DNA of 64,000 bases from positions 920-64,919 of the forward strand of contig JBAXJQ010000003.1 in the NCBI GenBank assembly GCA_037137775.1, in the 5' to 3' direction. The notes beneath the pieces were generated by a model. It saw only the letters and a program-made list of their open reading frames with translations. It was not told where the DNA came from and did not search any database. Of the stretch, positions 46,098-48,773 are shown piece after piece. The stretch's first letter is position 1. The number at the start of each line of letters is the position of its first letter. The stretch is from Candidatus Falkowbacteria bacterium. GTDB taxonomy: Bacteria; Patescibacteriota; Patescibacteriia; Patescibacteriales; GWE2-39-37. The position numbers and the translations under genes are program-made.

Positions 46098-47867
46098 CTA
46101 TTCTTCATCCTCAACAAATTGTAAATCATGTAGTTTACGATAAGTAGGACTGGTAATGATAAGTTCTGAATGCTTGCCAATAGCCTCGATGCCGCCTTTA
46201 GCAAAAACCAAAATCATGTCTGCGTGAATAACAGTAGACAGTCGGTGGGCGATAATGAATGAAGTGCGGTTTTTTATTAAGGCGTCCGTTGCTTTGGTTA
46301 TTAGGCGCTCACTTTCTGTGTCCAAATGACTTGTTGCTTCGTCTAAAATTAATATTCTTGGATCGCGTAAAACAGCTCGGGCAATGCCGATTCGTTGACG
46401 TTCACCACCTGAGAGTTTTATGCCGCGTTCGCCTACAACTGTCTGATAGCCATTTTCTAATTTAAGAATAAAGTCATGTGCTAGGGCTGTCTTGGCAGCC
46501 CCAGCAATTAGTTTACTTGAAATTTTGGTCTGTCCGTACGCGATATTTTCTGCAATGGTGCGAGAAAAAAGATCAACTTCTTGAGGTACAACTGCAATTT
46601 GTTTACGTAGGCTTTCTTGGGTGGCATCACGAATATCGACATTATCAATAAAGATGCCGCCTTTTTGTGGATCATAGGAACGGAGAAGTAAGTTGATAAA
46701 TGTAGTTTTGCCGCTACCAGATCGTCCAACTAGAGCACAAGTGGTTCCTGCCGGCACCATAACATTGATATGTTTAAGCGCGTATTGATTATCGCCTCGA
46801 TATGAAAAAGATACATTTTTAAATTCTACCCCAGTTTTTAATGGGAGTAGTTTTATGGCATTCGGTTTGTCCATAATATGAACCGACTCGTCAAAAATGG
46901 ATAATAACCGTTCAACTCGAGTGAGGTTGCGTCTAATGCGAGTAAACAAGGCTCCTAGGTTTGAAAGTGGTTGGTAGGCCATACTTTGTAAGGTAATATA
47001 CAAAACAAATTGACCAATAGTAGCAGTACCGTTCATTACAAAATATGCACTTAGGGTTAAGACCGCTACACGACCAATGGCTGATATGATAGTTTGAATG
47101 TTTTCTACCCTCTCCCAGAGCCGTTCCGCGCCGTATTAAATTTCTCGAGCATTAATCATCAAGCGTTGATGATTTTTGGTTTCAATTTCTTCTTGTGAAA
47201 ACTTTTTAACGGTTAATACATTGCCCGCTACATCATAAAGCTCCTTGGAGATTGTTTCAAAAGCATCGTTTGATTGTTGCTCGGTTTGATATATTTTATT
47301 GGCAATGTGATGAGTGGCCAAGAGATAAATCGGAAAGGGGATGAGCACGGCAAGTGCCACCCAGACATTTTCATACAAGAGGGCAATAAAGGCGCCAAAA
47401 AATATAATGAGAGGTGGTATAATCGCTTGACCGATTAAATCGAAGATAATGGTATAAAAAGACACTCCGCCACGTTCAATTCGGCCGATTATCTGTCCGC
47501 TAGAGGCACTATGATGAAATAGAGAGTGGAGTTGGAGATATTTTTCAAAAGCCTTACTACGTAAATCATCTTCAACCTTGGTCACCATTACAAAGAGGTG
47601 GTAGTTGTAGTTAGAGTGGAGCATACTACTAATTACTGACAAACCAAGTATGCCCAGGGCACAGTAAGACAAGGTTTGCCAAGGCAAGACTCCGGGGTGG
47701 CTAATAAATTTAGTTAGAGTATCGATAAGCGTGCGTGAAACAAACGGCACAAGAATGCTGGCAAACTGAGAGATTGTGATAAGGACAAGTAAAAAAACAA
47801 TCGTTTTTTTACGATGTTTTAGATATAACAAGACGCGTAAAAGAGTTGAAGGTTGTTTGTTGGTCAT
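46098..47867 (-). pseudogene. ABC exporter (fused TMD-NBD, MsbA/type I exporter-like) interrupted by one in-frame TAA
   Basis: ORFs 47136-47867 (TMD part) and 46098-47036 (TMD end plus NBD, with GRSGSGKTT, LSGGERQR and ILILDEATS) are in the same frame. The 99 nt between them contain no stop. The only interruption is TAA at 47136-47138, giving 589 sense codons in total. Confidence 0.75.
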
Positions 47868-48089: not shown

Positions 48090-48245
48090 TTTTATTGGCT
48101 CGGGGATAGGGATTTACCCCTACGCTACCGCTTCGGGGCATAAACTCCCGCCCGCCTGACGTTAGTCGGGCAGGTCTCATCCCATTCTCTAGCACGGTAA
48201 TATAAAACAACACCACGCTTTCGCTTAGGTGTTGTTTTATATTTT
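48090..48245 (+). ncRNA. candidate structured small RNA of unknown class
   Basis: GC-rich island in AT-rich DNA. Closing helix 48098-48113 / 48179-48193 (14 of 15 pairs, 2 of them G-U). Hairpins 48134-48150 and 48154-48171. All 4 wobble pairs are G-U only on the plus strand. Promoter upstream and terminator downstream. Confidence 0.45.
48204..48238. terminator. bidirectional terminator hairpin shared by the sRNA candidate (+) and tRNA-Gln (-)
   Basis: 11-bp stem aaaacaacacc/ggtgttgtttt with U-rich tracts following it on both strands. Confidence 0.65.
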
Positions 48246-48341: not shown

Positions 48342-48370
48342 AGAATACAATAGCTTTATTTTATTGTCAA
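48342..48370 (-). promoter_or_regulatory. promoter of tRNA-Gln
   Basis: The minus strand reads TTGACA (48370-48365), 17-nt spacer, TATTCT (48347-48342). Confidence 0.5.
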
Positions 48371-48390: not shown

Positions 48391-48420
48391 GAAAAGAGGA
48401 AGGATAAATCCTTCTCTCTT
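48391..48420 (-). terminator. terminator of the small-ORF transcription unit
   Basis: The minus strand reads aagagaGAAGGA-uuua-UCCUUCcucuuuuc: 11 bp with one bulge, followed by a U-run. Confidence 0.5.
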
Positions 48421-48432
48421 TGTGTGATATAG

Positions 48433-48591
48433 CTAGATGGAAGTGGTGGCAATGTGGTCAAGTTGTTGGTTGATAATGGTCAACAGCTTCAACACAATGG
48501 CGATCACTTGATCTGCTATATCGGGAAGGGCTATCTTGAGCACTAGAATGACTAGTAGGAGTGATAGCGCTCCCGAGATTGCTTTAAACAT
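48433..48591 (-). CDS. unannotated 52-aa hydrophobic peptide (MFKAISGALSLLLVILVLKIALPDIADQVIAIVLKLLTIINQQLDHIATTSI)
   Basis: ATG to TAG, bracketed by a strong promoter plus structured leader upstream and a terminator downstream. No SD. Below the ORF-track cut-off. Confidence 0.35.
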   Translation of the reverse strand: MFKAISGALSLLLVILVLKIALPDIADQVIAIVLKLLTIINQQLDHIATTSI

Positions 48592-48721
48592 AGGATTAGT
48601 ATGTTTATGAAAGGGAAGCGCCGTCGACTAGTCGGCTCAAAGACGCGGAGTGATTGCGTCACCCTTCCTGCCTCTGACCCTGCGGGCAAAAGTAGGAAGG
48701 CATAGCCAGATTGTTAAGGTT
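48592..48721 (-). promoter_or_regulatory. GC-rich structured 5' leader (riboswitch-like or independent ncRNA), class unknown
   Basis: Hairpins GACGC-N9-GCGUC and GCCG...CGGC. The segment AGGAAGGG can pair either with the upstream CCUUCCU or with the downstream CCCUUUC, and these two pairings are mutually exclusive. Confidence 0.4.
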
Positions 48722-48727
48722 CGTAGT

Positions 48728-48756
48728 ATAATAGCACAAAGTTTTATTATTGTCAA
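48728..48756 (-). promoter_or_regulatory. near-consensus sigma70 promoter driving the structured leader and small ORF
   Basis: The minus strand reads TTGACA (48756-48751), 17-nt spacer, TATTAT (48733-48728). Confidence 0.6.
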
Positions 48757-48773
48757 GATTGTAATTTATTTCG

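Follow-up and report, generated by a model that had tools for sequence, protein, structure and literature searches.

A small membrane-protein gene of a Candidatus Falkowbacteria bacterium with a predicted mRNA fold that hides the start codon

With moderate confidence, and on the strength of sequence comparison and computed RNA folds, we propose that an autonomous gene of a Candidatus Falkowbacteria bacterium encodes a conserved membrane protein with two helices and about 52 residues, the translation of which would be controlled in cis by the fold of its own mRNA. The gene occupies positions 48391–48756, on the minus strand, of the window, by which we mean the whole stretch of 64 000 nt that was analysed. 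Judged from folding models and by analogy, the best reading of its mRNA is a cis-acting translational lock in the style of type I toxins. A leader that buries the start codon is chiefly known from the mRNAs of small toxins; for this RNA or this protein such an arrangement is uncatalogued.

The transcription unit and its protein

The gene has its own signals for beginning and ending transcription. The promoter (48728–48756, minus strand) consists of TTGACA at 48756–48751, a 17-nt spacer and a TG-extended −10 element, TGcTATTAT, at 48736–48728; in promoter scoring of the window the two hexamers, with TATTAT at 48733–48728, gave 11 of 12 matches with the TG present, and the predicted transcription start lies near 48721. 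An intrinsic terminator, made of the stem GAAGGAU-UUAU-CCUUC and a following U-run, lies at 48391–48420 (minus strand). A preliminary description of this DNA had proposed a monocistronic unit with a near-consensus minus-strand promoter and a terminator of a hairpin and U-run; each of these proposals held, and all the sequence features that it listed lie on the minus strand where it had placed them. Its statement that the leader is the most GC-rich intergenic stretch did not hold, since leader GC is 0.55 and positions 48100–48199 have a GC of 0.59.

The combination of promoter, leader of 93–166 nt, ORF and terminator recurs at 12 loci in eight clades of Falkowbacteria-like CPR bacteria. A TTGAC(A/T)-17-TAnnnT promoter stands at the equivalent position in 11 homologous loci, ten of which have the upstream TG, and a strong terminator follows immediately 3′ of the stop codon in all homologues. 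The genomic positions of the unit are unrelated among the 12 loci, and it has been relocated between relatives whose PyrG proteins are 88% identical. Synteny of the tRNA-Gln to pyrG interval is not kept across 80 GTDB Falkowbacteria/Parcubacteria pyrG loci (65–75% PyrG identity), and none of these has a DNA homologue of the region; the homologous loci came to light only by way of more closely related PyrG proteins and afterwards by way of the peptide. Two loci carry irregular forms, a decayed partial duplicate of the leader in L090 and a leaderless copy adjoining a truncated gene in L088. There is no further copy of the unit within the 64-kb window, and tblastn against phage and plasmid collections returned no match. 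These two observations suit a chromosomal housekeeping gene no less than a toxin module.

The coding sequence (48433–48591, minus strand), the ATG of which is the first start codon after an in-frame TAG, encodes MFKAISGALSLLLVILVLKIALPDIADQVIAIVLKLLTIINQQLDHIATTSI. This is a membrane-type peptide of fewer than 60 residues with two hydrophobic or amphipathic helices, predicted as helix 2–21, Pro23 and helix 23–50, and an AlphaFold model (pLDDT 94) shows a helix-Pro-helix hairpin. A single-sequence, word-indexed protein search returned only the protein itself, and a full HMMER scan was needed to reach its homologues, which are about 50–56 residues long, fall into at least 26 clusters (50% identity) and share the consensus MFKAISGALSLxLxILVLRxALPEVAxLLxxIIxKxLxxxNxxLD. 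The dN/dS of the ORF homologues is 0.11–0.42, and the numbers of variable columns at codon positions 1, 2 and 3 are 35/45, 18/45 and 43/45. On this comparative evidence the 52-aa ORF is a genuine protein-coding gene under purifying selection, and the earlier view of it as a real small hydrophobic ORF is upheld by the clusters, the dN/dS values and the synonymous excess. It had been called unannotated; the public record of a Candidatus Falkowbacteria MAG lists it as hypothetical protein WCK11_01275. The family has no sequence match in Pfam, NCBIfam or PDB, and the model has no Foldseek match in PDB. An independent non-coding RNA, another of the early suggestions, is excluded as the sole reading of the locus by the conservation of the ORF at the protein level.

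Leader elements and their pairing with the coding sequence

The leader elements described here are all on the minus strand. The transcript begins with B0, a single-stranded A/U-rich end, AACCUUAACAAUCU (48708–48721), which is unpaired in MFE structures, is kept as (G)UCCCUUAAAAAUUG in the aligned relatives and may serve ribosomes as a standby site or an RNase as a point of entry. In the P1/P2 arm (48662–48700), B1 (CCUUCCU, 48700–48694) pairs with B2 (AGGAAGG(G), 48669–48662) and closes the variable hairpin P2 (48692–48671); the B1:B2 pairing probability in the window is 0.98–1.0 at all transcript lengths. RNAalifold retains P1 and P2 with compensatory changes, and P1 is retained in L094, L097 and L098 though their sequences differ. 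The hairpins P3 (GACGC-N9-GCGUC, 48642–48660) and P4 (GCCG/CGGC, 48620–48636), both of which had been named beforehand, are present in the fold, and the P4 loop, ACUAGUCGA, contains the conserved GUCGAC (48628–48623). P3 is variable, with other hairpins in L087 and L089 and a weak or absent one in the L084 clade. The P4 stem covaries when read by eye across loci (GCCG/CGGC, AUCGG/CCGAU, CCGG/CCGG, CGGG/CCCG and CAUCGGG/CCUGAUG). The conserved nucleotides of the leader number about 40 and lie in blocks (B0, B1, B2, the P4 loop and B4), and with the compensatory changes they confirm the conservation of the leader.

The proposal of mutually exclusive pairings in the leader stands in part. The purine tract AGGAAGGG (48669–48662) is complementary both to CCUUCCU (48700–48694) and to the proposed downstream partner, B4 (CCCUUUC, 48609–48615), and the complementarity of B1 and B4 to B2 is kept across clades where B2 has changed to GUGAGGC, GGCCGGGG, CGGGGGU or CUGGAAG. 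B2:B4 pairing is present in the leader-alone MFE structures of L087, L097 and L099, and in L087 and L099 it is the closing stem of a three-way junction that carries P3 and P4. Duplex matrices across clades do not always rank the cognate pair first; the permutation counts are 9/120 for B2:B4 and 2/120 for B2:B1. What did not stand is the occupancy of B2:B4, the predicted probability of which is about zero in the window; that of the open form is about zero in the window, the L084 clade and the L089 clade. Instead, the main predicted switch, absent from the preliminary description, is between P4 and a helix that joins the leader to the coding sequence. Other roles for these segments were considered and rejected: GGAAGGG as a Shine-Dalgarno site lies 70–90 nt from the AUG in an SD-less genome, and neither 5′–3′ end pairing of B0 with the terminator arm nor base-pairing between the GUCGAC loop and the remaining conserved blocks is consistent across clades.

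The long-range helix, LR, is an imperfect pairing of 22–42 bp between the 3′ third of the leader and codons ~3–19. Its 5′ strand in the window is UUUGAGCCGACUAGUCGACGGCGCUUCCCUU (48611–48641, minus strand), its 3′ strand is 48535–48584 (minus strand; +8 to +57 of the coding sequence, codons 3–19), and about 25 of its pairs are expected in the ensemble. The C-run of B4 is paired with the Gly7 codon in the predicted ground state. A weak AU hairpin at the tip of LR, P5 (UAAACAU(A)/(U)AUGUUUA, 48585–48607, minus strand), holds the AUG at 48591–48589. As the computed transcript of the window is lengthened, the probability of P4, which is 0.76 for the leader by itself, has dropped to 0.10 by +24 and is 0.00 by +36, and the probability that the AUG is unpaired is 0.00 from +12 on; the predicted displacement of P4 comes with the synthesis of codons ~8–12. 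LR was found independently in the MFE structures of the window, L084/85/92/93, L087, L089/90, L094 and L098, and together with P5 it is predicted to bury the AUG in seven of eight clade representatives.

The register of LR differs between clades, and column-wise covariation statistics are therefore weak; recoding and cross-clade duplex tests replaced them for this helix. When synonymous codons were drawn uniformly, with genome codon usage ignored, the native codons paired with their own leader better than 98–100% of recodings in all eight cases tested, and only 3 of 300 recodings of the window sequence paired equally well. The corresponding counts for total MFE were 4/200, 0/200, 2/200, 0/200 and 1/200 in five clades, and the test was not significant in L084 (48/200), L098 (53/200) and L099 (87/200). 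Equal codon positions are matched by differing leaders (UUUGAGC:GCUCAAG, GCCAA:UUGGU, GCGAAG:CUUCGC, CCGGAG:UUCUGG against CCGGGA:UCCUGG, and AUCACGAU:AUCGUGAU). RNAalifold recovers P1/P2 and part of LR, with double changes in 11 of 30 pairs, and AUGUUUAAAGCA is invariant at the nucleotide level in eight aligned homologues despite saturated dS elsewhere.

The mRNA as a whole is far more structured than its surroundings. The folding z-score of the 330-nt window transcript is −6.8 to −11.0, depending on the shuffle set, and the full transcripts of 11 of the 12 homologues range from −6.5 to −11.4 (L099, −3.1); 160 background windows of the same 64 kb have a mean of −0.49, a standard deviation of 1.33 and a minimum of −5.1. 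The window leader alone is marginally structured (z = −1.9), and the signal comes from leader and coding sequence together. The ORF and terminator alone reach z = −7.4, and the coding sequence holds a second structured domain, a long hairpin closed by GAUAUAGCAGAU/AUCUAGCUAUAUC (48426–48522, minus strand) with the stop codon in its stem.

In the absence of a Shine-Dalgarno sequence, the accessibility of the start site is a determinant of translation initiation. An SD-like 4-mer is present in only 2 of 45 long ORFs of the host. Because its genome is without Shine-Dalgarno sites, initiation is probably governed by start-site accessibility. The anti-SD motif is detected in only 48% of Parcubacteria and is missing in a subgroup (PMC9297842).

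A predicted translational lock and its alternatives

According to folds computed on 12 loci, the local leader hairpins P1/P2, P3 and P4 would form first during transcription. After about 25–35 nt of the coding sequence had been made, the 3′ arm of P4 and the CU tract B4 would pair with codons ~3–19, and LR would displace P4 and clamp the weak AU hairpin holding the AUG. Since LR replaces P4 and clamps this hairpin, the mature mRNA is predicted to be poorly translatable. In the open form that we infer, P4 would stand, B2 would be paired with B4 and not with B1, and the first codons would be freed. The shift between the two forms may be kinetic, with translation only while the mRNA is nascent; it may follow processing, either at the 5′ end to remove B1 or by RNase III cutting the long helix; or it may be driven in trans, through binding of an RNA or a protein to the conserved single-stranded 5′ end or to the RGUCRA loop of P4. 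More tentatively, it would represent a new kind of self-locking mRNA, found in an SD-less organism, where the leader hides the start codon by means of the gene's own first 19 codons and a conserved four-segment switch (B1:B2 / B4:CDS against B2:B4 / P4) is released by processing or an effector. CPR bacteria would then have their first described RNA-controlled module of a small-toxin-like (or ligand-sensing) type.

The closest systems are tisB/istR-1, zorO/orzO and dinQ/agrB of E. coli, aapA1/IsoA1 and aapA3/IsoA3 of Helicobacter pylori, and hok/Sok, and we compared our mRNA with the type I toxin mRNA architecture of published accounts (PMC5416894, PMC6733600, PMC8594479). Type I toxin mRNAs are described by long structured 5′ UTRs, buried start sites, metastable hairpins and highly structured coding sequences (PMC8594479, PMC5416894). 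Like them, the present mRNA is monocistronic, encodes a hydrophobic peptide of fewer than 60 residues behind a structured 5′ UTR of 100–170 nt, ends at a strong terminator and is unusually structured throughout; its primary transcript is also predicted to bury the initiation region by pairing with a distant segment, and a transient local hairpin is predicted to form first in transcription. In contrast to them, the buried part is an SD-less, AU-rich start region with its AUG and not an SD sequence, the sequestering partner is the first 19 codons in place of the 3′ end or an anti-SD, the loci revealed no antitoxin RNA, the host is a CPR bacterium, and the protein has no sequence similarity to any catalogued family.

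The early suggestion of a type I toxin-like peptide with a regulatory 5′ UTR thus remains the closest analogue as regards the small hydrophobic peptide and the predicted sequestered start, but no sigma-70-type antisense promoter keeps its position from clade to clade, and the window has none; an antitoxin RNA may be encoded in trans. A full type I toxin-antitoxin module, with a putative membrane-damaging toxin, an inert folded primary transcript, a translatable processed form and an unseen antisense or trans sRNA, is by analogy conceivable and, in our judgement, doubtful. The size, hydrophobicity and helical hairpin of the peptide agree with it, as do the structured 5′ UTR, start-site burial, metastable hairpin and structured coding sequence; so do a promoter and terminator of its own in a unit that shifts position between relatives with 88% identical PyrG, the decayed leader duplicate in L090 and the leaderless copy beside a truncated gene in L088. 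In the L084 and L089 clades only, the antisense strand carries an extended −10 without a −35 some 55 nt beyond the stop codon, an element that could mark an antitoxin, yet an antitoxin promoter is neither conserved across clades nor seen in the window. Moreover, the family shows moderate conservation and purifying selection across 26 or more clusters, the 64-kb window has a single copy, the phage and plasmid collections have none, and no paper in the literature library searched combines Patescibacteria and type I toxins.

The leader had also been likened to the expression platform of a riboswitch or attenuator, with which the alternative-pairing scheme is formally shared (1:2/3:4 against 2:3 in the trp attenuator and translational riboswitches; here B1:B2 plus B4/P4-3′:CDS against B2:B4 plus P4, with complementarity kept across clades). 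Unlike those platforms, this one has no conserved leader peptide, leader terminator or Rfam match and, among the eight clades compared, no evident conserved aptamer core. Rfam 15 returned only tRNAs for the window and six homologous loci; there was no match on 48391–48760 at the gathering threshold or at E ≤ 10, nor on the leaders of L084, L085, L087, L089, L092 and L093 at E ≤ 1, and no known riboswitch class is therefore recognized in the window or at these six homologous loci. ARAGORN found no tmRNA, and SRP RNA, 6S, RNase P and tmRNA were rejected as identities of the GC-rich leader by eye, by Rfam and by ARAGORN. A 14-codon uORF (AUG..UGA, 48703–48659) spans B1 to B2 in the window and has no equivalent in L084, L087 or L089; a conserved uORF, or a start-stop after B2, was rejected as not conserved. 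With no terminator-like site inside the leader and no conserved leader peptide, transcription attenuation is unlikely. We give little credence to a new ligand- or ion-sensing leader, where a small molecule would bind P1-P2-P3-P4 and move B2 between B1 and B4 to gate the start site. Riboswitches often lie upstream of small membrane transporters, and the blocks of about 40 conserved nucleotides, the complementarity of both B1 and B4 to B2 even when B2 changes, and the B2:B4 three-way junction of L087 and L099 are what such a sensor might look like. Yet P2 and P3 are free in length and sequence (P3 is nearly lost in the L084 clade), the B2 tract is replaced in L094, L097 and L098, as a ligand-binding core seldom would be, the leader is bound to a single gene family and pairs with its codons, the window leader alone is weakly structured, and Rfam is silent at the thresholds above. 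As P2 and P3 vary freely and the conserved bases mostly pair with one another or with the coding sequence, nothing points to a ligand pocket, an assessment made on conserved blocks and hypervariable P2/P3 in eight clades, a number too small for a firm consensus.

Equally improbable, in our estimate, is that there is no switch, and that the extreme folding merely stabilizes an abundant housekeeping mRNA or keeps translation of a small structural membrane protein constitutively low. This would accord with the consensus promoter and strong terminator, a structure that spans the whole coding sequence beyond the start region, purifying selection on the protein, its single copy in the 64-kb window and the negligible predicted occupancy of the open conformer. 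It would, however, leave unexplained why the P4 5′ arm and B1/B4 are kept as same-strand competitors across clades, why AUGUUUAAAGCA is nucleotide-invariant, and why the single-stranded 5′ end and the P4 loop motif are conserved.

Implications for CPR bacteria

The CPR, or Patescibacteria, account for much of bacterial diversity, and their genomes are tiny. We know of no cis-regulatory RNA or small-protein regulator described in them, and the literature library searched likewise yielded none. Searches of leaders only, by Rfam or by leader z-scores, overlook elements whose partner strand lies in the coding sequence. The unit would add a new small-protein family to Pfam and a new RNA family to Rfam, and its 52-aa peptide is a candidate type I toxin or cell-envelope regulator in episymbiotic bacteria. 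As a structured, putatively strongly expressed mRNA, it may offer a tractable example of post-transcriptional control in organisms without Shine-Dalgarno-based initiation.

The transcription unit, its protein and its surroundings

The unit occupies the minus strand of a Candidatus Falkowbacteria (CPR/Patescibacteria) genome, with pyrG (plus strand, start 48848) on one side and tRNA-Gln (48317–48246) on the other. As the preliminary description held, a promoter at 48756–48728 (TTGACA, a 17-nt spacer and a TG-extended TATTAT; 11 of 12 matches) precedes a 52-codon ORF at 48591–48433, whose ATG is the first start past an in-frame TAG, and a terminator follows at 48420–48391. The leader between promoter and ORF contains no internal terminator. 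Two details needed correction: the public record does annotate the ORF, as a hypothetical protein, and the leader, with a GC content of 0.55, is surpassed as the most GC-rich intergenic stretch by 48100–48199 (0.59).

On comparative grounds, the ORF is a genuine gene. A word-indexed protein search with the 52-aa peptide matched only the protein itself, and the proposed comparison of tRNA-Gln-to-pyrG intergenic regions found no DNA homologue at 80 GTDB pyrG loci, since the unit is not kept in synteny with pyrG. In closer relatives by PyrG (87–88% identity) there is a 53-aa homologue (MFKAMSGALSLLL...), located 1.4–3.5 kb from pyrG, which likewise adjoins tRNA-Gln. The HMM route, also suggested at the outset, was productive: 5 further loci, 2 further proteins and 26 clusters (50% identity) came from scanning metagenomes with a peptide profile, from a profile search of proteins and from running HMMER in full over 1.84 billion representatives. 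The family consensus is MFKAISGALSLxLxILVLRxALPEVAxLLxxIIxKxLxxxNxxLD, with M1, P23 and L37 invariant. Pairwise dN/dS over codons 1–45 is 0.11–0.42; the third position varies in 43 of the 45 codons and the second in 18 of 45. AlphaFold with 28 sequences predicts helix 2–21, a break at Pro23 and helix 23–50 (pLDDT 94). The family has no match in Pfam, NCBIfam, PDB sequences or Foldseek-PDB, and was not found in phage and plasmid collections.

Eleven loci have enough upstream DNA for comparison: the window and, among relatives' loci (L numbers), L084, L085, L092, L093, L087, L089/90/91, L094-96, L097, L098 and L099. At all of them, TTGAC(A/T), a 17-nt spacer and a TAnnnT −10 hexamer precede the ORF, with TG upstream of the −10 everywhere except L097; the leader is 93–166 nt long and a strong terminator lies directly past the stop codon. 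The flanking genes vary (pyrG, a 254-aa protein of unknown function, a tyrosine recombinase, tRNA-His, a TauE-like protein and others). Kept whole while its flanking genes differ, the unit is an autonomous module.

The unit is directly upstream of tRNA-Gln in the window, L084, L085 and L093; in L092 tRNA-Gln is also downstream, beyond a hemerythrin gene. It stands beside tRNA-His in L087, and in the P0129 clade (L094–L096, 1–966) it directly follows a gene for a tyrosine recombinase (Phage_integrase/XerC-like). Such surroundings, the recombinase and both tRNAs, are typical neighbourhoods of integrating elements. L090 and L091 carry at 1450–1540, ~370 nt upstream of the full unit, a partial second leader copy with no ORF behind it (the 5′ half, segments B0-B1-P2-B2, ending in GGAAGGAAGG); this is probably a duplicate that has since decayed, a hint at duplication or movement of the unit. 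In L088 (1–320) the homologue lacks both promoter and leader. A truncated gene, whose translation resembles by eye a PQQ-dependent sugar dehydrogenase, runs directly up to its ATG in a different frame, and the first codons of the homologue are ATGTTCAAAGCC versus the otherwise invariant ATGTTTAAAGCA; either the locus has truly been rearranged or the metagenome contig is chimeric.

Neighbouring elements were also recorded. Directly past the unit's terminator, a second near-consensus promoter (TTGACA-17-TATTCT, 48342–48370, minus strand) drives tRNA-Gln. In L084, L085 and L093 its −10 region is palindromic, which creates an antisense extended −10, and the tRNA-Gln precursor leader contains an additional small hairpin that has a U-run (AACCACCUCGUGGUUUUUU). 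A structured, GC-rich element (48095–48232, minus strand) follows directly on tRNA-Gln and a terminator-like hairpin; it is ~105 nt in size in the window and ~165–190 nt in relatives (L084 880–1050, z = −6.3; L085 3050–3215; L093 1455–1640), and has no Rfam match. Among the sequences examined it is single-copy and always tRNA-Gln-linked. Its hairpins differ between L084 and L085 by many compensatory changes (GAUGUUGCUC/GAGCAACAUC versus GAGGCUGCUC/GAGCGGCCUC), and its end repeats exactly the final 17–22 nt of the tRNA-Gln gene; this copy follows the tRNA's own A/G difference between species. The element could be what is left of one that had inserted at the tRNA 3′ end (att duplication), or else a tRNA-linked RNA of no known kind. 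An MsbA-like ABC exporter (46098–47867, minus strand) is divided between two ORFs ~100 nt apart, one of 243 aa for the membrane domain and one of 312 aa for the ATPase, as in the independent assembly L081; either the exporter is naturally encoded by two genes or it is a pseudogene.

Anatomy of the leader

The leader starts with B0, a predicted single-stranded, A/U-rich block, (G)UCCCUUAAAAAUUG. Helix P1 joins a CU tract, B1, to a purine tract, B2 (CUGGAAGGG in four clades), and closes the hypervariable hairpin P2; the variable hairpin P3 lies 3′ of both. P4 is a hairpin of 4–7 bp with the loop RGUCRA (GUCGAC in most), and its stem covaries (GCCG/CGGC, AUCGG/CCGAU, CCGG/CCGG, CGGG/CCCG, CAUCGGG/CCUGAUG). 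A second CU tract, B4 (CCCUUYUY), follows 3′ of P4, then an A-rich spacer of 16–29 nt and AUGUUUAAAGCA, which is nucleotide-invariant in 8 of 8 aligned homologues while synonymous sites elsewhere are saturated. Both hairpins reported earlier are present in the window (GACGC-N9-GCGUC at 48660–48642 and GCCG..CGGC at 48636–48620), as is the purine tract AGGAAGGG (48669–48662), complementary to CCUUCCU (48700–48694) and to CCCUUUC (48615–48609). The recommended Rfam search, run on the window's unit (up to E ≤ 10) and on the homologous leaders of L084, L085, L087, L089, L092 and L093 (E ≤ 1), returned no match for any of them.

The suggestion that B2 has alternative partners stands in part: complementarity is conserved where B2 has changed, but the predicted probability of B2:B4 is ~0 in the window, as in the L084 and L089 clades. 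Clades with an altered B2 have both B1 and B4 altered to match: L094 (B2 GUGAGGC, B1 GCCUCAC, B4 GCCUCC), L097 (GGCCGGGG, CCCGGCC, CCCGG), L098 (CGGGGGU, CCCUCG, AUCCUCG) and L099 (CUGGAAG, a weak B1, CUUCCAG). The leader-alone minimum free energy (MFE) structure contains B2:B4 in L087, L097 and L099. Permutation of the five B2 types gave 9/120 for B2:B4 and 2/120 for B2:B1, a result that is suggestive, not decisive. The RNA has a formal four-segment layout, B1:B2 with (P4-3′/B4):CDS versus B2:B4 with P4. A 14-codon uORF in the window (48703–48659, minus strand; AUG CCU UCC ... GAA GGG UGA) spans exactly B1 to the end of B2; it was not found in other clades, was rejected as a conserved feature and is probably fortuitous.

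Predicted pairing between leader and coding region

The leader had been described as structured, but alone it hardly exceeds shuffles in stability (z = −1.9). Between its predicted TSS and its terminator, the transcript has z = −8.1, −6.8 or −11.0, varying with the shuffle set, against a background of 160 330-nt windows drawn from the two strands of the 64-kb stretch (mean −0.49, sd 1.33), whose minimum of −5.1 is the adjoining tRNA-Gln region. The folding signal resides in the whole transcript, the most structured stretch of the 64-kb window. Full-length z is −6.5 to −11.4 in 11 of 12 homologues and −3.1 in L099.

In all clades but L097 and L099, the MFE structure pairs codons ~3–19 with the leader segment that begins just past P3 and runs through B4, with 22–25 expected long-range pairs in core clades and >40 in L094. 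This helix is predicted to enclose P5, a weak AU hairpin containing the AUG (UAAACAU/AUGUUUA in the window). It uses homologous codon positions and a leader strand that differs between clades: UUUGAGC pairs with GCUCAAG (V17-L18-K19) in the window, GCCAA with UUGGU in L084, GCGAAG with CUUCGC in L087 and AUCACGAU with AUCGUGAU in L098. CCGGAG:UUCUGG in L087 corresponds to CCGGGA:UCCUGG in L089, and two synonymous changes in L085 convert U-A to U.G and U.G to U-A.

Native codons out-pair 98–100% of 300 synonymous recodings with their own leader in all eight sequences first tested. Scored by total MFE over 200 recodings, the test gave 4/200 for the window, 0/200 for L087, 2/200 for L089, 0/200 for L094 and 1/200 for L097, and no significance for L084, L098 and L099. 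RNAalifold on an 8-sequence alignment independently recovers P1/P2 and part of the long-range helix; 11 of the 30 pairs carry double changes. Predicted folding by transcript length keeps P1 at a probability of ~1 throughout. P4 is formed and the spacer open in the leader-only prediction, the AUG is paired once +8 to +12 is added, and P4 is lost at +24 to +36 nt of coding region, where the long-range helix replaces it.

A proposed translational lock and its alternatives

A Shine-Dalgarno (SD)-like 4-mer occurs at −18 to −5 in only 2 of the 45 longest ORFs of the window, and the regions upstream of its long ORFs are A/U-rich; the host appears to initiate translation without SD pairing. These SD-poor ORFs fit the detection of an anti-SD motif in just 48% of Parcubacteria and its absence from a subgroup (PMC9297842). 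GGAAGGG, 70–90 nt away from the AUG, was rejected as a ribosome-binding site, given that distance and the scarcity of SD sites.

We interpret the predicted folds as a cis-acting translational lock. The mature mRNA would hide its SD-less start region within the long leader-CDS helix, P4 and perhaps B2:B4 would represent an early or open form, and release may be kinetic, or dependent on processing or a trans factor. The riboswitch first proposed from the alternative pairings of B2 is improbable; conservation in its putative core is poor, and the leader is coupled to codons of its own gene. The other rival is a static fold that stabilises or attenuates without any switch.

By analogy, the closest known systems are the type I toxin mRNAs tisB, zorO, dinQ, hok and aapA1/3, whose primary transcripts are inert via long-distance pairing and whose metastable hairpins block premature translation (PMC5416894, PMC6733600, PMC8594479). 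The unit's predicted peptide and mRNA folding agree with those of type I toxins. No antisense promoter is conserved among the homologous loci; all that the antisense strand offers is extended −10 motifs lacking a −35, immediately beyond the terminator in two of the clades. Membership of the type I toxin family cannot be claimed from these predictions. The underlying principle, a self-sequestering mRNA, is already known. What is new, by Rfam 15, Pfam, NCBIfam and the literature searched, is the RNA, the protein family, the SD-less setting, the CPR host and a sequestering partner that consists of the first 19 codons.
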